Below the pieces are notes generated by a model. That model made no database searches. It was not told the DNA's origin and saw nothing but the letters and a program-made list of their open reading frames with translations. Below, piece after piece: positions 37,715 through 52,348 of a stretch of DNA of 64,000 bases (positions are counted from its first letter, which is position 1; each line of letters starts with the position of its first letter). This DNA comes from an uncultured delta proteobacterium (GTDB taxonomy: Bacteria; Desulfobacterota; Desulfobacteria; Desulfobacterales; Desulfosalsimonadaceae). The stretch is from NCBI GenBank assembly GCA_963826785.1, contig CAWGYD010000004.1, positions 160,001 through 224,000 on the forward strand. Direction: 5' to 3'. Made by a program: the position numbers and the translations under genes.

Positions 37715-37752
37715 TTGACAAGCAGCGGCAGTCCGGGTTAATGGTAGTACCA
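37715..37752 (+). promoter_or_regulatory. Putative sigma70 promoter with overlapping FadR-type GntR operator
   Basis: TTGACA at 37715-37720, GTTAAT at 37737-37742, palindrome TGGTAGTACCA at 37742-37752. Confidence 0.65.
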
Positions 37753-37904
37753 ATGCACATGCTGGATTAAAAATCGTAACCGAATCTTTAATTAAACTTA
37801 TCTGAATTAATGGCTAAATTTAATTAAAGGGGTTCCGGCTAAAATTTTAAACATCGATAATCAAGCTGTTTTTATCAGGTTAAAGTAGGACCATTTGAAC
37901 CGAA

Positions 37905-38693
37905 ATGACGGGTACCATGAATTATAAAGATACCATTTTCAGTCCCGCCCAGGTCGGCAGGGCCGGCGAAGATATCGCGCTGCAGATCGAGGCGGCCATT
38001 ATCGGCGGAAAGATTGATCCCGGAGAACGCCTGCCCAGTGAGCGGGATCTGCAGGTGCAGTTTCACACGTGCCGGGGCGTGATCCGGGAAGCCCTGGGCG
38101 CATTGAAACAAAAGGGCCTGATCGAGATCAAAAAGGGCGCCAAGGGCGGGGCGTTCGTCAAAGAGGTGGAAATGAGACTGGTCAGCGAATCGCTTGCCCT
38201 GTTTTTAAAACAGCGGCAGGTGGACCCGGCCTATCTCATCGAGTTTCGCGAAAGCCTCGACCGGACCATCACGACCCTGGCGATCGCCCGGGGAACGCTT
38301 GCGGAAAAAGAACAGCTGGTGGCCGGCGCAGAGTGTCTGCTCAAGGAACTCAAAAAGATCGAACCGGACATGGAATCGGTGTTTGAGATCGACCGGAACC
38401 TGAACCTGCTTCTGGCGCAAATGACGAAAAACCCGCTGTTCGACTGGATCATGCGGGCCATACAGTCGGGATTGAGCTCCTATGACCACCCCTTGTATAC
38501 CCATCCGGATTATCGGGAACGAACCGCGATCAACTGGCTGGAAACGGCCCGGGGAATCGCTCAAAACGAGCCGCTGCGCGCCCTTTCGGTTATCGGGTAT
38601 CATTATGTCATGCTGCGCGATTGTCTGGCAGCGCAATCGGCGCACCAGGATCAAACCGACGAATTTGCAGTAAATCATACGGAAACACAGTGA
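37905..38693 (+). CDS. GntR family (FadR subfamily) transcriptional regulator
   Basis: PGERLPSERDL...R..IREAL..L...GLIEIKKG.KGGAFV; FCD-like C-terminus. Confidence 0.92.
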   Translation: MTGTMNYKDTIFSPAQVGRAGEDIALQIEAAIIGGKIDPGERLPSERDLQVQFHTCRGVIREALGALKQKGLIEIKKGAKGGAFVKEVEMRLVSESLALFLKQRQVDPAYLIEFRESLDRTITTLAIARGTLAEKEQLVAGAECLLKELKKIEPDMESVFEIDRNLNLLLAQMTKNPLFDWIMRAIQSGLSSYDHPLYTHPDYRERTAINWLETARGIAQNEPLRALSVIGYHYVMLRDCLAAQSAHQDQTDEFAVNHTETQ

Positions 38694-38756
38694 TGCGGGC
38701 GCGCCCGGCGAACGGGATCAAAAACGCGCCTGCGCATCCGAAGGAAGTATCGATAC

Positions 38757-39476
38757 ATGTTACAGGCATCTCATCTCACTAAAAAATTCGGGGAACTGGT
38801 TGCGGTAAATGATCTGAGCTTCCGCGTGGAAACGGGTCAGGTGTATGGCATTGCCGGCCCCAATGGGGCTGGGAAATCAACGGTCTACAACCTGATCACC
38901 GGAAATTACGCGTTTGAGGGGGATATCACGTTTAACGGAACGAGCATTTCCGGGATGCCCCCCCACAAGATCGCCCAGCTGGGCATTTCACGCACCTTCC
39001 AGATTCCCCAGACCTTTCCCAGCCTCACGGTGGAGCAGACCCTGGGCGTGGGATCCCGCTTTGGTGACGATCAGGGCTATGACGCCGGGTTTGTGGATGA
39101 AATCCTGGCGTTTCTGGACCTGGAGGAAGACCGCCACCGGATGACCGGCGATCTCAATCTTCTGGGCAAGAAAAAACTCATGATCGGCGCGGCACTGGCC
39201 ACCCGCCCGAAAATACTGCTGCTCGACGAGCCCATGGCCGGCTCCAATGCCCATGAAATCCGGGCACTCATGGACCTGATCCGGCGCATCAACGAAGACA
39301 TGGGGGTTACCATCATCATCATCGAACATTTCATGAAAGTGCTCACCGAACTCACCGAAAGGCTGCTCATCATCGAAGCCGGCACCCAGGTTGCGGAAGG
39401 CGACCCGGACGAGGTGACCAGTGATCCCGAGGTGATCGAATGCTATCTGGGCGATGCGTATGCTGACGGCAACTGA
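38757..39476 (+). CDS. LIV-type ABC transporter ATP-binding protein (LivG-like)
   Basis: GPNGAGKST, RTFQIP, LLLDEP and IIEH. Confidence 0.93.
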   Translation: MLQASHLTKKFGELVAVNDLSFRVETGQVYGIAGPNGAGKSTVYNLITGNYAFEGDITFNGTSISGMPPHKIAQLGISRTFQIPQTFPSLTVEQTLGVGSRFGDDQGYDAGFVDEILAFLDLEEDRHRMTGDLNLLGKKKLMIGAALATRPKILLLDEPMAGSNAHEIRALMDLIRRINEDMGVTIIIIEHFMKVLTELTERLLIIEAGTQVAEGDPDEVTSDPEVIECYLGDAYADGN

Positions 39477-40164
39477 TGTAAATGCCTACTACGGCCAGTT
39501 CCATGTGCTGCACGGGGTTTCGTGCAGGGTGCGCAAGGGCGAAGTGGTGGTCATGCTGGGCCCCAACGGCCACGGCAAGAGCACGCTTTTAAAATCCATC
39601 TGCGGTCTGGTGGACCGGGTGGAAGGCACCATCACCTATAAAGGAGACAATATTTCCGGGCTGTCTGCGGAAAAGCTGGTCAACCGGGGGGTGATCTATA
39701 TCGCGGAAAACCGGGAACTGTTCGGCGACATGACGGTGCTGGAGAATCTGAAACTGGGGGCGTACTCCCCCAACGCGCGCCCGGCGGAAAAGAAAAACCT
39801 GGCCCAGGTGTTTGACCTTTTTCCCCGCCTGGCCGAACGGAAAAAGCAGATCGCCTCCACCATGAGCGGCGGGGAAGCCCGCATGCTGGCCATCGCCAGG
39901 GGGCTGATGTCCAATGCGGATTTTTTGTGCATCGACGAACCTTCCCTGGGCCTGCAGCCGAACCTTCGAGTGGAAGTCTTCAATATCATAAAGGAAATAA
40001 ACCGGCAGGGTAAATCCATCCTGCTGGTGGAACAGAACATTCCCCAGATTGCCGAACTGGCGGACCGGATTTATGTGCTGGAAGAAGGGTGCATCACCTT
40101 CGAGGGGGATGCCGAAGCCGCCGCCCGGGATGATCACCTGAAAGAAATTTTTTTGGGAATGTAA
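39454..40164 (+). CDS. LIV-type ABC transporter ATP-binding protein (LivF-like)
   Basis: GPNGHGKST, LFPRLAER, MSGGE, DEPSLGL.P and LVEQN. Confidence 0.93.
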   Translation: MRMLTATDVNAYYGQFHVLHGVSCRVRKGEVVVMLGPNGHGKSTLLKSICGLVDRVEGTITYKGDNISGLSAEKLVNRGVIYIAENRELFGDMTVLENLKLGAYSPNARPAEKKNLAQVFDLFPRLAERKKQIASTMSGGEARMLAIARGLMSNADFLCIDEPSLGLQPNLRVEVFNIIKEINRQGKSILLVEQNIPQIAELADRIYVLEEGCITFEGDAEAAARDDHLKEIFLGM

Positions 40165-40180
40165 TCGGAAGAAAAGAAAC

Positions 40181-41056
40181 ATGCTCCTTGAATATCTGGA
40201 TGTCTTTATCAGCGGCCTGACCAACGGTTCCGTATATGCGCTCATGGCCGTCGGCCTGACGCTGGTGTACGGTGTGAGCCGGGCGTTTAACTTCGCCTAC
40301 GGTTCGTTTTTCAGTCTGGGCGGTTATGTCGCCTGGGTTTTCATGATGTATCTGGGTGTGCGGGGCGGTTACATCATGGTCTTTTTCCTGTCCATACCGC
40401 TTCTGATGGTCTTCGGGTATTTCACCGAAAAGCTGATCGTCGCCCCTTTGCGAAAACGCTCGGACTGGGAAGTCAAGGTCATGATGATCACCCTGGGACT
40501 GGCGCTGTTTATGGACAATGGCTTCCAGGTCCTTTTCGGCCCGCGCATGAAGTCGCTTCCGCCCATCATGGAAGGCGCCATCCAGGCGGGGGATGTTTTC
40601 ATCTCCAACCAGGACCTGATGATTTTTATCCTGTCGATTTCAGGCATCCTCGCTTTCCGCTGGCTGCTCAACAACACCCGCATCGGCATGGCGGTCCGTG
40701 CCGTGGCCCAGAATCCGGCGGGTGCGCAGATTGTCGGAATTCCCAAAGACAAGATTTTCGCGGCCACTTTTGCCATATCCACGGTCATGGTGGGCACGGG
40801 GGGCATCCTGCTGGCGCAGAAATATTTTGTTTCTCCCACCGGCGGCTGGGACATCCTGGTCAAATCATGGGTGATCACGGCATTCGGCGGCATGGGCTCA
40901 ATCCGCGGAGGCCTGTATGCGGCCTTTATCCTGGGGATGCTCGAAGCGTTTGTGGGCTACTGGTTCGGCCTGAACTGGGTCCTTTTTGCCCTGTTCGCCG
41001 TGCTGCTCACCACCCTGGCCATCCGGCCACAGGGGCTCATGGGAAAGTGGGGCTGA
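40181..41056 (+). CDS. LIV-type ABC transporter permease (LivH-like)
   Basis: GSVYALMAVGLTLVYG...NFA.G, GMAVRAVAQN and RPQGLMG. Confidence 0.92.
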   Translation: MLLEYLDVFISGLTNGSVYALMAVGLTLVYGVSRAFNFAYGSFFSLGGYVAWVFMMYLGVRGGYIMVFFLSIPLLMVFGYFTEKLIVAPLRKRSDWEVKVMMITLGLALFMDNGFQVLFGPRMKSLPPIMEGAIQAGDVFISNQDLMIFILSISGILAFRWLLNNTRIGMAVRAVAQNPAGAQIVGIPKDKIFAATFAISTVMVGTGGILLAQKYFVSPTGGWDILVKSWVITAFGGMGSIRGGLYAAFILGMLEAFVGYWFGLNWVLFALFAVLLTTLAIRPQGLMGKWG

Positions 41057-41180
41057 TGGCGAAGTTAAAAGGACCATCTACGGCGTTGCAGCCATTTTTC
41101 ATCCGCTCAACATACGCGGTGTATGCCCTCGCGGATGAAAAATGGCGCGTCTTGTATATGGGCCTTTTAACTTCGCCATC
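41055..41180. mobile_element. 126-bp MITE-like palindromic element inside the ABC operon
   Basis: Ends GATGGCGAAGTTAAAAGG / CCTTTTAACTTCGCCATC; inner arms GCCATTTTTCATCCGC / GCGGATGAAAAATGGC. Confidence 0.75.
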
Positions 41181-41216
41181 CCATTAATCCCCTAATGGTT
41201 AGGAAGTAAGAACCTT

Positions 41217-42212
41217 ATGACTATGAATTTCAAACGCATGAGTGCGTTTATCGCGCTGATCTATGGCGGCATGGCGCTCATGCCGCTGTTTGTGGGCGGC
41301 GTGGATCATCTGATGCATATCCTCATCATGTGCCTGATCTGGGCAGTGGTGGCCTCGTGCTGGGACCTCATCATGGGGTTTGCCGGAATTTTTTCCTTCG
41401 GGCAGGTGGCTTTTTTCGTCATCGGCGCCTATGCCTCGGCCATCCTTTCCATCCAGTTTCATATCCATCCGCTGTTGGCCATGCTCCTGGCCGGAGTGGT
41501 GGCCGCAGCCTTCGGCGTGCTGGTGGGCCTGCCCTGCCTGCGGCTCAAGGGGGCGTATGTCGCGCTGGTGACCTTTGCCGTGCACATGATCCTGGAGCCT
41601 TTTCTGAAAAGCAGCATGGGCCGAGCCATCGGTACCGGCGGCTCCCGGGGGATACTGACCATCCCGCCGCTGGAACTTTTCGGCATCTCCTTCAACACGG
41701 ACCACAAGGTGGCCGTATTCTATGCGGCCCTGGTGCTGGCCGTGGCCTGCTCGATCATCATCATGCTGGTGATCCGATCCTTCTGGGGAAAGGCATTTCT
41801 GGCGCTCAAGGATTCTCAGGAATTTGCCGCCAGCCTGGGCGTCAGCGCGTTTCGGTACAAACTGGCCGTATTCGCCCTCACCAGTTTCCTCACCGGCGTG
41901 GTCGGCGGGTTTTATGGACATTACGTGGGCATGCTCTCCACGCGCATGCTCGGGATCGACCTTTTTGTCACGCTCATGATCATGCTGGTTCTGGGCGGCA
42001 TCGGCCAGTTTCCCGGCGCCATTCTCGGTGCCATCATGACCGTGGCCATCAATGAAAATCTTGCACCCCTCGGATCGTACCGTCCCCTGATACTGGGGGC
42101 CCTGGTGGTGGTGCTGGTGCTTCTGCTCCCCGACGGCATCATTGGCCTGCTGCGCAGGCTTACCCCGGGAAAGACCCCTGTCGCAATTGAATCGACGGCT
42201 TCCGGGGGCTGA
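41217..42212 (+). CDS. LIV-type ABC transporter permease (LivM-like)
   Basis: GFAGIFSFGQVAFF.IGAY, LRLKGAYVALVT and LPDGIIG. Confidence 0.92.
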   Translation: MTMNFKRMSAFIALIYGGMALMPLFVGGVDHLMHILIMCLIWAVVASCWDLIMGFAGIFSFGQVAFFVIGAYASAILSIQFHIHPLLAMLLAGVVAAAFGVLVGLPCLRLKGAYVALVTFAVHMILEPFLKSSMGRAIGTGGSRGILTIPPLELFGISFNTDHKVAVFYAALVLAVACSIIIMLVIRSFWGKAFLALKDSQEFAASLGVSAFRYKLAVFALTSFLTGVVGGFYGHYVGMLSTRMLGIDLFVTLMIMLVLGGIGQFPGAILGAIMTVAINENLAPLGSYRPLILGALVVVLVLLLPDGIIGLLRRLTPGKTPVAIESTASGG

Positions 42213-42280
42213 ATAAATCGCTGAAAGAAGACGGCAGAAACCGGATACCGTAAACATTCATTTAATAAATGGAGGAAAAA

Positions 42281-43502
42281 GTGAAGAGAACTGGTTTTGT
42301 AATTCTGGTAATTACGGCAATTTTGACCTTTACCGGTACGGCGCTGGCCGCCGATGTGATCAAGGTCGGCGTCCCTCAGGCCATGACCGGCCCTTATACC
42401 GACACGGGCGACAACTACTGGAAGGGGATCAAGATGGCCATCGACGAGATCAATGAAGCACGGCGGCCTTCTGGGCAAAACCCTCGTACCCGTTCGTTTC
42501 GACACCCAGGAATTTGCCCCGGAACGGGTCATGGAGGGTGCCGATTATCTGTGCGGACAGGAAAAAGTGGATTCCGTACACGCCGGCTGGGCCGGCTGGG
42601 GGCAGGATGTGCGCGCATACGGCAAATATAGTGCGCCATTCTTTGCGGACGATGGCTCCCAGTCCGCCGTGGACGTGTTCAACCAGGACCGGGAAAAGTA
42701 CGGAAATATCTTCCAGCTGACCGATACCGACGTCAACCAGGCCACGAGCATGTTCAACGTGCTGATGGCGCTGCCCTATGAATATCCCAACAAGAAGGTG
42801 GTCATCATCAACGCCGACGATGCCTGGGGCATGGGCGTGGGCGACACCCTGGAAGACAATTTCAAGAAAAAGGGGTGGGAAGTGGCCATGCACGAAGTGG
42901 TGCCCTATGGCACCCGGGAATGGGGACCGATCCTCACCCGTATCCGCAGACTCAAGCCCGCCATCATCCACGTGGAAATCGTAAGCGCCCAGGAAGTCAT
43001 CACCTTCTTCCGCCAGTTCATGAAGGCGCCCACCAATTCCATCCTGAGCTACGGCTACTCCATTGTCCCGCGTGAGGTGGTGCAGACCATGGGCAAAGAA
43101 GCCGACGGCCTGATCGGTGAAGTCCCCACGGCCATGCCCACGCCCACGGCGCCCACGCCGGAAGCCCAGGCCTGGGTGGACAAGTTCAAGAAGCAGTGGG
43201 GGCATCAGCCCCAGGCCGGTTCCTGGGCCGCGTACAGCGGCGTAAAAGCCTGGGCCGCGGCCGTTGATGCCGTGGGCAACGAAAAAGACCACAAAGCCGT
43301 CTGCGACTATATCGCCTCCAAGGGATACAAAGGCGAGACCGGCTGGTGGAAATGGGATGAAGACCATGTCATGCGCGGCGGCGGGGATGTGCCCTTCGGC
43401 CATTACCAGGTTCAGGACGGCGAGATGGTGACCATCTTCACCGATCCACCGGCAAAACCGTATCTTGATTTCAAATTCATCACCCCACGCTGGATTAAAT
43501 AA
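42281..43502 (+). CDS. LIV-type ABC substrate-binding protein, apparent +1 frameshift at ~42460
   Basis: GTG start after GGAGG; signal peptide; IKVGV....TGP....G....KG..MAIDEIN continues as GGLLGK in the next frame. Confidence 0.88.
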
Positions 43503-43505
43503 TTC

Positions 43506-43557
43506 ATGACCACTTCGCCGTGCGGGGGTGAATCCCCGCACGGCGAAGTGGCCGTCA
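43506..43557 (+). terminator. Strong hairpin after the substrate-binding protein gene (terminator or mRNA stabiliser)
   Basis: CACTTCGCCGTGCGGGG-GTGAAT-CCCCGCACGGCGAAGTG, no U tract. Confidence 0.6.
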
Positions 43558-43583
43558 TCCAGCAATTGGATTTTTCCAAAGTT

Positions 43584-43687
43584 CGTCACCCCGGCGCAGG
43601 CCGGGGTCCAGAAACAATCTAAAAAATTGGATTTCCCTGCTCCGGAATGACGGGTAGGAAGTCCCGATTTTTTTTTACGAATCCATA
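43584..43687. repeat. Degenerate CGTC-type REP pair with terminal motif
   Basis: CGTCACCCCGGCGCAGGCCGGGGTCCAG (43584-43611), TGGATT...CCGGAATGACG (43628-43652), then TTTTACGAATCCAT. Confidence 0.7.
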
Positions 43688-43713
43688 ATGATAAAACCCG
43701 TAAAGTTTCTGCT

Positions 43714-44169
43714 TTGAACCGTTTTTCGCAAAAATTATATATCAAAACCAGTTTTGACCGGTGCACGGGATGTGATCTGTGCCGGCTGGCGTGCTCCGAG
43801 CACCTGCTGGGCGGCTACAATCCGCATCGGGCCCTTCTGCACATCCGCCACGCGTGTGAAAACCTATATCATTTTCCCACCGTGTGCAATCAGTGCGAAA
43901 ATGCCTATTGCGCCAAGGTCTGCCCGGTCAACGCCATCGAACGGAACCCGGCCACCGGCGCCCTGGTGGTGGATTCCGGCAAATGCGTCGGGTGCAATCT
44001 CTGCCATCGCTACTGCCCGCTTCACGTGGTGGGCGTGGACCCGGAGCTGAAAAAATCGGTCAAGTGCGACCTGTGCGCGGGCGAGCCCGCCTGCGTGGCC
44101 GCCTGCCCCACCGGCGCCCTGGAACTGGCCGGGTGCGAAGAACGCGCCGAAGCAGGGGAGGGGGCCTGA
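43714..44169 (+). CDS. 4Fe-4S dicluster protein (AOR-associated ferredoxin subunit)
   Basis: CTGCDLCRLAC, CNQCENAYCAKVCP, CVGCNLCHRYCP and KCDLC.GEPACVAACP; stop overlaps the AOR start. Confidence 0.9.
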   Translation: MNRFSQKLYIKTSFDRCTGCDLCRLACSEHLLGGYNPHRALLHIRHACENLYHFPTVCNQCENAYCAKVCPVNAIERNPATGALVVDSGKCVGCNLCHRYCPLHVVGVDPELKKSVKCDLCAGEPACVAACPTGALELAGCEERAEAGEGA

Positions 44170-45998
44170 TGGCAACCAGCTACATGGGAAAACTGCTGTG
44201 GGTGGATTTGAGCGGCCGGAATTTCCGGGTGACGGAAACGCCGGAACGGCTGCAGTCCGATTTTGTGGGCGGCAAGGGTTTCGGGGCAAAACTGCTCCAT
44301 GACCTGACCGCCGCGGGACTCGACCCCTTTTCGCCCCAATGCCCCCTGATGTTTCTGACCGGCCCGCTGACTGCAACGGCCGCGCCGGCCATGCGGGCCT
44401 GCGTGGTGACAAAGTCTCCGCTCACGGGAACATTCCTCGATTCGTATTTCGGCGGGCGCTTCGGGCCGGAGATCAAGTACGCCGGGTATGACGGCATCAT
44501 CATCACGGGCCGGGCCGAAAAACCGGTTTACCTGTGGATCAGCGATGAGGCAGTGCAGTTTCGCTCCGCAGAAGGCATCTGGGGGGAGGATGCGCTGGCC
44601 GCAAATGAGCGCATTAAAAAAGACCTGGATGAACCGGAGGCCATGGTCGTGACCATCGGCCAGGGCGGTGAAAACCGGGTTCCCTTTGCGCTCATCAGCT
44701 GCGAATACAACCGGCAGGCCGGCCGGGGCGGCGCCGGTGCGGTCATGGGGGCCAAAAACCTGAAAGGCATCGCCGTAAAAGGTTCCGGCCTGGTGAAGGT
44801 CCATGACCTGTCCGCCTTTCAAAAAGCCTGTTGCCAGGCCCATGCGGCAATTGCCGAAAGCGAAGTCTGCAAGACGCTCACCTATGGCGGCACCAGCACC
44901 AGCGTGGCGTGGGCGTCGGAGGCGGGAGTGCTTCCGCACCGGAATTATGCCGAGCAGGTGGATGCCCGGGCCGGCAGGCTCGGCGACGAAGGCCAGTACA
45001 AGCACCTGTTTCTGGGCAAGGCCGCCTGTTTCGGTTGCCCCATCCGCTGCAGCCAGATGGGCGCGGTGCGCACGGGAAAATACGCGCATTTCATCACCGA
45101 CATCGTGGAATACGAATCCGCCGCGCTGATGGGGTCAAACCTGGACATTCACGATATCCGCGCGGTGGCGCACCTGGTGAAATTGTGCGACCGGTACGGA
45201 ATCGATTCCATGAGCGCCGGCGGGGTGATCGGCTTTGCCTTCGAAGCCGCCCGGAATGGCGCCATTCAGGAGCCTGATGGAATAAAACTCGATTTCGGAA
45301 GCGTGGAAGGCGCGCAATATCTCATCTCCGCCATGGCCCTGCAGGAAGACGAACTGGGGCGCCTTCTCTCCCAGGGCGTGAAACGCGCCAGCGAGATCCT
45401 GGGCGGCAATACGGATGCGTATGCCCAACACGTCAAGGGGCTTGAAAGTCCGGCCTGGGGGCCGCGCGGCACACCGGGCATGGGGCTTGCCTACATGACC
45501 GCCGACCGGGGCGGCTGCCACCAGCGGGGATTTATGATCGGCTATGAAGTGGGCGGCGAAACCTACAACGGACGGCCCGTTCAAGCCCACACCCTTTCGG
45601 GCAAAGCGGAGATATTAAAGGACCGGCAGGATTACCTGTCCGGAACCGATGCGCTGGTCAAGTGCGATTTTGCCGCCTTCGGGATATCGCCGCAGGTTTA
45701 TGCCGACCTGTTCACCGCCGCCACCGGAAGACCCGTGGGACCCGGATTTTTCAATGAACTGGGAGAACGCATCTGGAACCAGACCCGGCTGTTCAACCTG
45801 CGGGAAGGTTTCAGTCAAAAAGATGACCGCCTGCCGCGGCGGTTTGTCGAAGAGGCGCTTTCCAGCGGGCCACACAAGGGACAGCGCATCAGTGAAGAAG
45901 ACATGGACTTCATGCGCAACGATTATTACCGCGTGCGAGGCTGGGACGAACAGGGGCGCCCCACGGGGCAGACCCTCGATAGACTGGGGCTGGTGTAA
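44169..45998 (+). CDS. aor: Aldehyde:ferredoxin oxidoreductase family protein (W/Mo-pterin)
   Basis: KSPLTG, GRGGAGAVMGAKNLK, CFGCPIRC, EYES, CDRYGIDSMS, DRGGCH and YYRVRGWD..G.P. Confidence 0.93.
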   Translation: MATSYMGKLLWVDLSGRNFRVTETPERLQSDFVGGKGFGAKLLHDLTAAGLDPFSPQCPLMFLTGPLTATAAPAMRACVVTKSPLTGTFLDSYFGGRFGPEIKYAGYDGIIITGRAEKPVYLWISDEAVQFRSAEGIWGEDALAANERIKKDLDEPEAMVVTIGQGGENRVPFALISCEYNRQAGRGGAGAVMGAKNLKGIAVKGSGLVKVHDLSAFQKACCQAHAAIAESEVCKTLTYGGTSTSVAWASEAGVLPHRNYAEQVDARAGRLGDEGQYKHLFLGKAACFGCPIRCSQMGAVRTGKYAHFITDIVEYESAALMGSNLDIHDIRAVAHLVKLCDRYGIDSMSAGGVIGFAFEAARNGAIQEPDGIKLDFGSVEGAQYLISAMALQEDELGRLLSQGVKRASEILGGNTDAYAQHVKGLESPAWGPRGTPGMGLAYMTADRGGCHQRGFMIGYEVGGETYNGRPVQAHTLSGKAEILKDRQDYLSGTDALVKCDFAAFGISPQVYADLFTAATGRPVGPGFFNELGERIWNQTRLFNLREGFSQKDDRLPRRFVEEALSSGPHKGQRISEEDMDFMRNDYYRVRGWDEQGRPTGQTLDRLGLV

Positions 45999-46139
45999 TG
46001 TCCCGTCAAAAAGCGTTCTCGGCCGGGTTGTATCGTTACAACACGGTTGAATTTAGAAATTTGAATACAGATACCATGCCGTTTTCTTCTCCTGATATTT
46101 CGGATGAAGGGCAGGCGCATGGAACAGCAAGGAGTCAGC

Positions 46140-47798
46140 ATGAAAAAACACTATGACTATATCATCGTCGGCGGGGGGTCTGCCGGGAGCGTTCTGGCAA
46201 ATCGCCTGAGCACGAACCCGAAAAACCGGGTGCTGGTGCTGGAGGCCGGTCTGCCGGATTACAAATGGGATTTTCGCATCCACATGCCGGCCGCACTCAC
46301 CTATCCCCTGGCCAGCCGCATGTACAACTGGTGGTACGAATCCGAACCCGAGCCCTTCATGCACAACCGCCGGGTATACCAGCCGCGCGGAAAAGTCCTG
46401 GGGGGATCGAGCTGCATCAACGGCATGATCTACATTCGCGGAAACGCCCAGGATTATGAAAAGTGGGCCAAAGAGCCGGGTTTGGGAAAATGGGATTATG
46501 CCCACAACCTGCCCTATTTTCAGCGGTTTGAAGGCCGTCTCCAGGGCGCGGACGAATACCACGGTTCGGTGGGACCCCTTTATCTGACCACCCCGGAGTG
46601 CGCAAACCCCCTGTTTGACGCCTTTTTCCAAGCCGTGCAGGAGGCGGGATACCCGCTCACCACGGATGTGAACGGGTACCGGCAGGAGGGTTTCGGATCC
46701 TTTGACCGCACCTGCTACCGGGGCCGCCGCTGGAACGCGGCCCGGGCGTACATCCACCCGGTCAAAAACCGTTCCAACCTCACCGTCCTCTGCCGGGCCC
46801 ACACCACCCGCATCCTTTTTTCCGGGAAAAGGGCGGTGGGTGTGGAATATGTACGGGGCAAAAAGACCATCCAGGCTTCGGGCGGCGAGATCATCTGCTG
46901 CGGCGGGGCCATCAATTCGCCCTCGCTGCTCCAGCTTTCCGGCGTGGGTAATGCAGCCGAACTCGATGGGCTCAACATCCCCGTGGTGCAGGACCTTCCC
47001 GGTGTGGGCGAAAATCTGCAGGACCACCTGGAAGTCTATGTGCAGTATGCCTGCAAAAAGCCGGTCAGCCTCTATCCGGCCCTCAAAGCCTGGCGGCAGC
47101 CCTTTATCGGGGCACAGTGGCTGTTCAAGCGAAAGGGCGTCGGCGCCAGCAACCATTTCGAGGCGGGCGGTTTCATCCGGTCCAACGACACCCTGGAATA
47201 TCCCAACCTGCAGTATCATTTCCTGCCCATTGCCATCCGCTATGACGGTTCCGTGGCCCAGGGCGGCCACGGCTATCAGGTTCACGTGGGCCCCATGAAT
47301 ACGGACGTGCGCGGAAGCGTCAAAATCACCGGCGCAGACCCTTTTGTCTATCCCAAGGTGAAATTCAACTACCTGTCCACCGAACAGGAGCGCCGGGACT
47401 GGGTGGACGCCATCCGGGTCACCCGAAAGATCATGACCCAGCCGGCCTTCGACGAACTCCGGGGGGCGGAGCTCGCCCCGGGCGAGGCGGCCCAGACGGA
47501 CGAGCAAATTCTGGATTTCGTGGGGCGCGAAGGGGAATCCGCCTATCATCCCAGCTGCACCTGCAAAATGGGAACCGACGACATGGCGGTGGTGGACCCT
47601 CAGCTCAAGGTCCGCGGCGTCGAGAACCTGCGCGTGGTGGACGCCTCGGTCATGCCGTACATCACCAACGGCAATATTTATGCACCGGTGATGATGATTG
47701 CGGAAAAGGCGGCGGACATGATCCTGGGAAACACGCCCCTGGCGCCGTCTCAGGCACCCTTTTACACGGACGAAAAAAAGGCCGATTCATCGGTTTAA
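46140..47798 (+). CDS. betA: Choline dehydrogenase (GMC oxidoreductase)
   Basis: DYIIVGGGSAG, DFRIHMPAAL, RGKVLGGSS.INGM, NLQDHLEVYVQ, SNHFEAGGF, QYHFLP and AYHPSCTCKMG, which are BetA-typical segments. Confidence 0.9.
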   Translation: MKKHYDYIIVGGGSAGSVLANRLSTNPKNRVLVLEAGLPDYKWDFRIHMPAALTYPLASRMYNWWYESEPEPFMHNRRVYQPRGKVLGGSSCINGMIYIRGNAQDYEKWAKEPGLGKWDYAHNLPYFQRFEGRLQGADEYHGSVGPLYLTTPECANPLFDAFFQAVQEAGYPLTTDVNGYRQEGFGSFDRTCYRGRRWNAARAYIHPVKNRSNLTVLCRAHTTRILFSGKRAVGVEYVRGKKTIQASGGEIICCGGAINSPSLLQLSGVGNAAELDGLNIPVVQDLPGVGENLQDHLEVYVQYACKKPVSLYPALKAWRQPFIGAQWLFKRKGVGASNHFEAGGFIRSNDTLEYPNLQYHFLPIAIRYDGSVAQGGHGYQVHVGPMNTDVRGSVKITGADPFVYPKVKFNYLSTEQERRDWVDAIRVTRKIMTQPAFDELRGAELAPGEAAQTDEQILDFVGREGESAYHPSCTCKMGTDDMAVVDPQLKVRGVENLRVVDASVMPYITNGNIYAPVMMIAEKAADMILGNTPLAPSQAPFYTDEKKADSSV

Positions 47799-47843
47799 TC
47801 CATATATTTTTCTAAAACCATTCAACATGATCAGGAGGAGAAG

Positions 47844-48602
47844 ATGAAGAAAAAGATGATGGGAGTTTTGTTGCTGGTACTGCTGGGCGCCGCCGGCACG
47901 GCATTTGCCGGGGAAGGCCCCTTTGCCGCGGACAATTTCAGCGCCACGATGTATCTGACCACGGACTATGTTTCCCGGGGGATATCCTTTTCAGGAGAGG
48001 ACCCGGCCATTCAGGGGACGTTCGATTATGCCAACCCCAACGGCATTTTTGCCGGCATCTGGGCCAGCAGCTGGGACAGCGGGGAAACCTCCAATAACAT
48101 CGAGACCGGCTACTATGCCGGGTATGCGGGAGCGCTGGGAAATGCCGGATACAGCCTTTCGGCCAACTACTACGTCTATCCCGGTGCCGATGATGATGCA
48201 GCGGAATGGGATTACTGGGAATTTGCCGCATCGGCCAATTACACCTTCGATCAGGCGCCCCTGACCCCCGTGGCCGGTGTCGGATATGTCTATTCACCCG
48301 ACTGGTTCGGGGAAGACGGGGATCTCAACTATGTCAATTCAACCCTTGATCTGGCGCTGCCCATGAATCTGGGCCTGGGATTCGAAGTGGGATATTTCGA
48401 TCTCCAGGGCGACAAAACCACTCCGGTGGGATTCGGTCTTGACGGCGGCAGCGGATATGATTACGTCCACTGGAGAGTCGGTCTGTCCACGACCCTGGTG
48501 GGATTCGGCCTTGACCTGAGCTATCATGACACCACCGAGGAGGATTTCTTCGGAGATCTCGGCGGCTCAAGAGTCGTTTTTACCCTGTCGCGCAGCATTT
48601 AA
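47844..48602 (+). CDS. TorF/TIGR02001 family putative outer-membrane porin
   Basis: Signal peptide; TTDYVSRGIS....PAIQG.FDY, G.WAS, Y..W.VG and DLSYHDT; AGGAG RBS. Confidence 0.82.
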   Translation: MKKKMMGVLLLVLLGAAGTAFAGEGPFAADNFSATMYLTTDYVSRGISFSGEDPAIQGTFDYANPNGIFAGIWASSWDSGETSNNIETGYYAGYAGALGNAGYSLSANYYVYPGADDDAAEWDYWEFAASANYTFDQAPLTPVAGVGYVYSPDWFGEDGDLNYVNSTLDLALPMNLGLGFEVGYFDLQGDKTTPVGFGLDGGSGYDYVHWRVGLSTTLVGFGLDLSYHDTTEEDFFGDLGGSRVVFTLSRSI

Positions 48603-48636
48603 AAATTTAAAAAGATCAGGGTATCTGAAATACGAT

Positions 48637-48681
48637 GCGCCATCTTCGGCTTTGTCAGCCGGGGATGGCGCTTTTTATTTT
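48637..48681 (+). terminator. Intrinsic terminator ending the choline/AOR operon
   Basis: GCGCCATCTTCGGCT-TTGTC-AGCCGGGGATGGCGC followed by TTTTTATTTT. Confidence 0.8.
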
Positions 48682-50886: not shown

Positions 50887-52348
50887 TTACAGCGCCGGCT
50901 TTTGTTTATGCCAGGAAGTGGCCTGTTCATAGCAGAAGGCCGCGTTCAGCAGGGCGGCTTCGTCAAAATGGTTTCCCATCAGCTGCAGCCCGATGGGCAG
51001 GCCGCCGCCGGAGAACCCGCAGGGGACCGACAGCCCCGGAATACCCGCCAGGTTGGCCGATATGGTGAATATATCGGACAGATACATCGTGAGCGGGTCG
51101 TCGGTGTTCTCCCCGATGGTGAAAGCGGGGGTGGGGGTCACCGGGGAAAGGATGATGTCGCATTTTTCAAAGGCGGCGGCAAAATCGCTGCGGATCAGGG
51201 TCCGGATCTGGGAGGCCTTGCCGTAGTAGGCATCATAATACCCTGCGGACAGGGCATACGTGCCCAGCAGGATGCGCCGCTGGACTTCGGCGCCGAACCC
51301 TTCCGAACGGGTGTTGTGGTACATCTCCATCAGGCTGCCGGCATCCGCCTGCCGGGTACCGTATTTGACCCCGTCATAGCGGGCCAGGTTGGAGCTGGCT
51401 TCGGCCGGGGCGATCATGTAGTACACGGCCACGCAGTATTCGGTGTGGGGCAGGGTGATGTCGACAAATTCGGCGCCGGCAGCGGACAGGACCTTCATGG
51501 CGCTTTCAATGGCCGATTTCACCTCCGGCGATATCCCTTCGGCCTGATGGTATTCCTTCGGGATGCCGATTTTCACGCCTCTGACATCGCCGGTAAGCGC
51601 GGCGCGGTAATCGGGCACCGGCCGGTCGACGGAGGTGGAATCCATGGGATCGTATCCGCATATGGACTGGAGCAGGATGGCCGCATCGGTCACGTCTTTG
51701 GCCAGAGGGCCGATCTGATCCAGAGAAGAGGCAAACGCCACCAGGCCGAACCGCGACACCCGGCCGTAGGTGGGTTTGACCCCCACCACCCCGCAGTGGG
51801 AGGCCGGCTGGCGAATGGAGCCGCCGGTGTCCGAACCCAAAGATCCCAGGCACATGTCTGCCGCCACTGCGGCCGCGGATCCGCCCGAGGACCCGCCGGG
51901 AACCCGGGTGGGGATCCCAGGGGTTTTTCGTGACGAAAAACCCTGAATTTTCCGTGGAGGAGCCCATGGCAAATTCATCCATGTTGACCTTGCCCACGCA
52001 GACGGCGCCGGCATCGTTGAGCTTTGAAGCCACGGTGGCATCATAGGGGGGAACAAAGTTTTCAAGTATTTTCGAGGCGCAGGTCGTGCGCACTCCCCGG
52101 GTGCAGATCAGGTCCTTTATTGAAAGGGGAATGCCGGTGAGCAGCCCGAAATTTCCGGCGGCAATGGCCGCATCGGCGTCATCTGCCGCCTTCAGGGCGG
52201 CTTCTTTGGTCACCGTGATATAGGCGTTGATCCGCCCGTCAACGGAATCGATCCGGTCGAGCACGGAGGAAACCAGATCCCGGCTGGATATCTCCTTTTT
52301 TTTCAGCCGGTCCAGGGCTTCATGGATGGTCAGCGTATACAATGGCAT
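50887..52348 (-). CDS. gatA: Asp/Glu-tRNA amidotransferase subunit A, apparent +1 frameshift at ~51910
   Basis: [23 protein letters not shown] / [10 protein letters not shown] and [13 protein letters not shown]; one extra C in GATCCCCACC. Confidence 0.95.

Follow-up and report, generated by a model that had tools for sequence, protein, structure and literature searches.

An aldehyde oxidoreductase predicted to stand in for BetB in a choline-to-betaine operon of an uncultured delta proteobacterium

How is the oxidation of choline to glycine betaine completed when the gene of the choline dehydrogenase BetA lies in an operon without betB? The question is raised by a stretch of 64,000 nucleotides, hereafter the window, from an uncultured delta proteobacterium of the Desulfosalsimonadaceae (assembly GCA_963826785.1, contig CAWGYD010000004.1, positions 160,001 to 224,000), in which betA follows the gene of an aldehyde oxidoreductase (AOR). 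An earlier reading, made from the sequence only, had proposed that a tungsten-type, ferredoxin-reducing AOR replaces BetB. Comparative genomics supported the replacement itself; tungsten and ferredoxin are discussed below as predictions. Because the linkage of the two genes recurs, this AOR and betB nearly exclude each other, both types of locus share a GntR regulator and its operator, and their BetA proteins are interleaved in a tree, we consider it likely that a dedicated AOR clade is a non-orthologous replacement of BetB after BetA, and a predicted betaine-aldehyde oxidoreductase. The operon is best read as the known choline-to-betaine pathway in a new version, with an AOR as putative second enzyme.

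The co-oriented cluster described in the sequence-only reading was found with all its genes, its terminator and the overlap (TGATG at 44167-44171) between the stop of the iron-sulfur (Fe-S) protein gene and the start of the AOR gene. The operon reads as follows:

37905..38693, + strand: GntR/FadR-family regulator (GntR and FCD domains), a family to which the regulator of betA-betB loci also belongs
38757..39476, + strand: LivG-like ABC ATPase (profile matches)
39454..40164, + strand: LivF-like ABC ATPase (profile matches)
40181..41056, + strand: LivH-like permease (profile matches)
41217..42212, + strand: LivM-like permease (profile matches)
42269..43502, + strand: Peripla_BP_6 substrate-binding protein, predicted choline binder, frameshifted near 42456-42460
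43714..44169, + strand: AorA-like polyferredoxin with 16 Cys, four predicted [4Fe-4S] clusters and a TTG start (best match AorA 8c0z_C, E 2.5e-25)
44169..45998, + strand: AOR/WOR-family (tungsten oxidoreductase) catalytic subunit, 609 aa, predicted betaine-aldehyde oxidoreductase (AFOR_N and AFOR_C domains, alignment, model)
46140..47798, + strand: BetA choline dehydrogenase (GMC; TIGR01810), likely start at 46140 after AGGAG, longest open reading frame (ORF) from 46104
47844..48602, + strand: TorF-family putative porin, accessory (TIGR02001, 129.6 against a cut-off of 47.15)
48637..48681, + strand: intrinsic terminator (folding z -5.86)

For the first oxidation step, BetA passed the curated equivalog model TIGR01810 (833.6, cut-off 732.1) and PRK02106 (877.4, cut-off 605), and matched structure 9lq0 with an E value of 8.9e-199. 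For the second step, no BetB was found in the host genome, the assembly of which is 88% complete; its best aldehyde dehydrogenase (ALDH) reached 323 bits on TIGR01804, the cut-off of which is 668.6. CutC was not found either (best score 456, cut-off 1050), nor was a BCCT carrier, so that the absence of betB, betT and cutC first noted for the window extends to the genome. The absence of opu/proU genes, in contrast, holds for the window only, as a ProU/OpuA-like ABC importer is encoded elsewhere. The host has dsrA above cut-off, which marks it as a sulfate reducer; its relatives are named as Desulfobacterales, and it carries about eight further AOR-family loci with 28-38% identity to the operon AOR. 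Five glycyl-radical enzymes, none of them CutC, are encoded on its contigs C4, C6, C1 and C8, one being N-terminally extended (ORF of 1021 aa).

Does the pairing of betA with this AOR recur? A search of other genomes for betA-aor co-localisation without betB had been suggested, and it returned 27 further loci in which AOR directly adjoins betA. The two genes were neighbours in 4 of 5 AOR loci fetched from closer relatives, in all 6 metagenome AOR loci, and in 4 of 80 betA loci of named genomes, those of Desulfocicer vacuolatum DSM 3385, Desulfotignum and Desulfobacula among them. Among 40 other betA loci of the same order, the neighbour was AOR in 13, betB in 18 and never both; 9 had neither in view, 5 of which end at contig ends. 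An order-level sample of 401 Desulfobacterales-type genomes was then scored with three AOR candidates per genome, clade AORs being defined by at least 54% identity, with a gap down to 44%. betA was present in 41 genomes and a clade AOR in 23, and 21 of these 23 had betA, against 2.4 expected. Such recurring linkage, across loci of relatives and metagenomes, led us to reject a chance co-location. The arrangement is not a single frozen one: at least four gene orders were seen (gntR-liv-FeS-aor-betA, gntR-FeS-aor-betA, gntR-betA-opuAC-FeS-aor and FeS-aor-tetR-betA), with 26-248 bases between AOR and betA in 22 of the 25 loci measured. The TetR genes lying between aor and betA in three loci (L013, L118, L016) were ruled out as BetI (33-46 bits against 201.3). 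A phylum-level sample gave 4 of 401 genomes, all from the same order; protein matches also name Desulfovermiculus and Desulfomicrobiaceae. Cultured carriers are D. vacuolatum DSM 3385 for the locus, and Desulfatitalea alkaliphila and Desulfovermiculus halophilus for the AOR.

The AOR and BetB alternate. The 41 betA genomes fall into 17 with the AOR only, in 12 families, 16 with BetB only (one truncated), 4 with both and 4 with neither. On TIGR01804, 12 of the 20 genomes of the BetB set passed and 7 more scored 611-668; among 25 AOR-type genomes none reached the cut-off or exceeded 547. The alternative neighbour of betA is a true BetB, as 3 of the 4 tested passed the same model. No betB was present in any of the AOR-betA loci examined. 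Apart from this, in four betA loci (L093 in G405, L096 in G300, L117 in G109 and L120 in G397), from genomes 98-99% complete, betB is truncated or missing and a clade AOR is lacking as well.

AOR-type and betB-type loci share one GntR (39-75% identity) and its operator. Upstream of the operon lie:

37715..37742, + strand: possible sigma70 promoter (TTGACA, 16 nt, GTTAAT), seen by eye and absent from the consensus scan list
37740..37754, no strand: palindromic FadR/GntR-type operator with core TGGT-N3-ACCA, the sole such core of the window

Of 42 related loci, 30 have the exact core upstream of gntR, against 0.13 of 42 in shuffles. Among the 13 AOR-type loci (one more was dropped as too short) 7 have the exact core and 6 a site with one mismatch; among the 29 others 23 have it. 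The whole genome contains a single copy of the extended consensus, at the beginning of the operon. The GntR may thus govern a choline regulon through a defined operator. In a tree of 76 proteins, the BetAs linked to AOR and to BetB were interleaved, with 4 changes of label, 2 of them forced by starred branches, and the AOR-linked proteins made up no separate GMC subfamily. Gain and loss of the partner cannot be told apart on this tree. In betB loci, BetA does its work with no such Fe-S protein. In two genomes an alkaline phosphatase gene lies directly 3' of betA (L010:11750-13378 and L120:13825-15453); it possibly releases choline from phosphocholine.

We then considered whether the AOR itself fits the reaction. 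In an AOR phylogeny, also suggested earlier, the 35 clade AORs form one clade apart from 11 outgroups (SH-aLRT 100, quick tree). The predicted structure (pLDDT 91.8) gave TM-scores of 0.94 to tungsten AORs (1aor, 8c0z, 9mqx and 9g7j), 0.84 to WOR5 and 0.83 to BamB. The best sequence match is Pyrococcus furiosus AOR (1AOR, E 1.3e-110), whose T243, Y312, E313 and H448 correspond to T242 (35/35 clade AORs), Y315 (34/35), E316 and H451; these second-shell residues and the cluster cysteines C287, C290, C294 and C499 are all present. The P. furiosus enzyme is, however, a homodimer without a polyferredoxin subunit, acting on a broad range of peptide-derived aldehydes, and its motif D-x-x-G-L-C reads D-A-L-V-K-C in the operon AOR. 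AorABC of Aromatoleum aromaticum (8C0Z) and WOR1LS (9MQX) likewise have a catalytic subunit and a four-cluster AorA-like protein, AorA being the best match of the Fe-S partner. The operon AOR differs from them by its 35-37% identity, by the lack of AorC, bifurcating module and moaD genes in the operon, and by its membership of a separate, well-supported clade that carries Q452, D500 and D311 and is tied to one pathway. In the A. aromaticum enzyme the available part of PMC10413684 assigns substrate binding to Tyr468, Phe511 and Phe514. These residues align with F455, F501 and F504 of the clade, and His464 with H451. D500, beside F501, is present in 35/35 clade AORs and 0/11 outgroups, Q452 adjoins the catalytic His, and position 248 is aromatic in 35/35. 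An aromatic cage combined with an acid would fit a trimethylammonium aldehyde. The AOR is far under the YdhV model (202.8 against 868), and its metal is probably tungsten.

P. furiosus WOR5/ASOR also deserves comparison, being a heterodimer with a polyferredoxin. According to the available part of a 2025 review (PMC12096430), it has lost the second-shell Thr and changed the Tyr to His, two changes that the operon clade does not share, and its second step converts betaine aldehyde to betaine. The 'taurine to glycine betaine' conversion given there is chemically odd, as taurine has no N-methyl groups. WOR5/ASOR acts on sulfonates and has only 30% identity to the operon AOR. In the portion of that review available, the word 'choline' is absent and betaine aldehyde is named for WOR5/ASOR only; a term search did not return 'choline' from the accessible text of PMC6365974, PMC11887813 and PMC11291895 either. 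We found no publication that pairs betA with an AOR in a search of largely open-access literature; supplements to WOR phylogenies might list the clade.

The importer raises the question of the substrate. It is Liv-type, with a Peripla_BP_6 binding protein and not one of the OpuAC type (PF04069, TIGR03414), and we infer choline as its ligand. A choline analogue (dimethylethanolamine, homocholine, a sulfonium or arsonium alcohol), with an AOR suited to the corresponding aldehyde, is a conceivable though improbable substrate for the whole operon. Such a substrate would agree with an importer that is not ChoX, OpuC or BetT, and with the neighbours that the importer has elsewhere. Among the 401 genomes, 43 encode the Liv binding protein; 11 of these have betA and none belongs to the 20 of the BetB set. 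Of the 32 betA-less loci 19 were fetched. In these an APH-family kinase lies ahead of livG in 8 (L161, L163, L165, L166, L167, L170, L172, L174), 5 of which also have a divergent MttB, a gene resembling dimethylglycine (DMG) dehydrogenase is present in 5 and pylB in 3: genes that fit several methylated amines. Choline itself is favoured by the AOR-linked BetA proteins, which pass the choline equivalog and form no subfamily of their own, by the operator held in common with betAB loci, and by the OpuAC/ChoX-like binding protein that takes the place of the Liv one in four AOR-betA loci (L131, L132, L135, L136). In genome G128 (81% complete, no betA found) a clade AOR follows choX, choW and choV, each above its curated cut-off.

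The kinase loci resemble the MthK/MthB choline route of Eubacterium limosum and could possibly be choline demethylation loci of that kind; homologues of MthK/MthB co-localise in deltaproteobacteria according to the available part of PMC12155760. In a tree, the binding proteins from betA loci do not separate from those of the kinase loci. No named MthK was present among the 120 listed matches to the kinase, the PDB returned homoserine kinase only, and the kinase/MttB pair was not found in the host genome. A second AOR group, with 37-39% identity, has the order MttB-FeS-AOR and in one case immediately precedes this Liv importer (L176:1706-5476; also L150 and L151).

Several observations weigh against choline import and the replacement of BetB by the AOR. 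The sampled genomes are kin, hence the counts are not independent. The AOR does not adjoin betA in 8 of the 23 clade-AOR genomes; 6 of these 8 have betA elsewhere, 4 of the 6 also with BetB. In one such genome (L129, G060) about 3 kb beyond the AOR were in view, without betA. betA was not found in G320 (96% complete) or, as said, in G128. Of the four betA genomes with neither AOR nor BetB, two are 98-99% complete with no trace of betB. Aromatic pocket residues are also common in broad-spectrum AORs, and D500 is a candidate pocket residue. A TupA-like protein of the host scored 209.5 against a cut-off of 400. As for the importer, the binding protein has as nearest structure 3h5l, at 22% identity, and no close relative of known ligand; it is frameshifted in the host, and 32 of the genomes that encode it have no betA. 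Finally, five AOR-type genomes hold ALDHs that reach 522-547 bits on TIGR01804 and could carry out the second oxidation. Alternatively, then, the AOR could be a broad-spectrum aldehyde detoxifier travelling with betA, betaine aldehyde being finished mainly by an unlinked NAD-dependent ALDH. This is an explanation that the breadth of characterised AORs (PMC12096430, part available), the genomes lacking both enzymes and the four keeping both with an unlinked AOR would suit. We nevertheless hold it to be unlikely: the best ALDH of the host falls far lower than the five just mentioned, of the AOR-family loci of the host only this clade tracks betA, and the AOR-betA loci examined are devoid of betB.

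With the AOR in the place of BetB, the pathway would run as follows. The Liv-type importer would bring in choline, which BetA would oxidise to betaine aldehyde. BetA-type flavoproteins donate to menaquinone, and the electrons of this step would go there. The AorAB-type enzyme, probably a tungsten one, would turn betaine aldehyde into glycine betaine, and its electrons would leave through the four-cluster partner for a low-potential carrier, ferredoxin or some other, since no AorC-like flavin subunit is encoded. The aldehyde/acid couple lies at about -580 mV and menaquinone at about -74 mV. Four electrons per choline would enter sulfate respiration. Like E. coli betIBA, the operon combines a BetA equivalog with a regulator, an importer and two oxidation steps. 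It departs from the canonical pathway in lacking BetB, BetI and BetT, in having a FadR-type GntR instead of the TetR-type BetI, a Liv-type importer and, as a predicted second enzyme, a tungsten/molybdenum-pterin AorAB. E. limosum MthK/MthB and CutC/CutD likewise serve anaerobic choline use, and MthK/MthB also avoids trimethylamine, but neither system oxidises choline to betaine. The sequence-only reading had proposed a route that releases no trimethylamine, and the distribution of CutC agrees: of 51 genomes only two, of the BetB type, have a CutC above the cut-off, and none of the 25 AOR-type genomes does.

What becomes of the betaine? The earlier suggestion that it serves as methyl donor found no support in the host genome. 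The betaine motif of MtgB is Y97, R312, H348 and F356 (PMC13080624, available part); of the two MttB proteins of the host, one keeps 1 of the 4 residues and the other 1 of the 3 that could be checked, in each case the His (the positions were located by eye in alignments, the offset of the numbering being deduced). MttB-family genes were not enriched either: 16 of the 25 AOR-type genomes have them, as do 8 of the 16 with BetB only. For these two reasons retention as a compatible solute is the likelier fate in the host, and betAB genes of sulfate reducers, annotated for instance in Desulfohalobium retbaense, are read as compatible-solute genes in the accessible parts of PMC3035252, PMC6491731 and PMC11505543. 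It is very unlikely that the purpose is mainly catabolic, the same chemistry feeding a corrinoid-dependent demethylation of betaine. This would account for the 9-21 MttB copies of some AOR-type genomes and for the MttB and DMG-dehydrogenase-like genes that flank the Desulfotignum locus, and Desulfobacterium strains do demethylate betaine to dimethylglycine (PMC6716910, available part); 9 of the 25 AOR-type genomes, however, have no MttB, three of them being 100% complete. MttB-rich relatives may demethylate betaine further. In the host, a cluster at L152:9007-19350 (contig G000:C1, about 81-91 kb) contains a gene resembling sarcosine/dimethylglycine N-methyltransferase (404, cut-off 550), a corrinoid protein, two non-MtgB MttBs (one frameshifted), a hydantoinase-like gene and a RACo activator.

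With this assignment, one of the many uncharacterised AOR/WOR clades, and one that cultured organisms carry, would gain a likely physiological substrate. It predicts that betaine-aldehyde oxidation yields low-potential electrons, accounts for betA without betB in sulfate reducers, and points to a possible new family of choline importers. A wider proposal is far more tentative: a third anaerobic route for choline in marine and saline Desulfobacterales, with a new Liv importer, BetA and a tungsten AOR, might supply low-potential electrons to sulfate respiration and divert choline from trimethylamine and methane. If active in sediments, it would be a choline sink that yields no trimethylamine.

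Some minor features of the operon were also recorded. The TorF porin gene is confined to the closest relatives (loci L128, L130 and L133 only). The frame change in the binding-protein gene is probably an assembly error, since further genes are split between two frames: the essential gatA (window 50887-52348, - strand) and several others, among them an MttB, a glycyl-radical gene and two paralogues of the AOR outside the window. The assembly thus seems rich in indel errors, and the 120 closest homologues of the binding protein are mostly unbroken, at about 406 aa. Two further elements separate this gene from that of the Fe-S protein:

43510..43551, no strand: strong hairpin 3' of the binding-protein stop, without a T run, followed by a dispersed REP-like repeat
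43575-43686: palindromic repeat resembling repetitive extragenic palindromes or miniature inverted-repeat elements (REP/MITE-like), with 7 more blast matches in the genome

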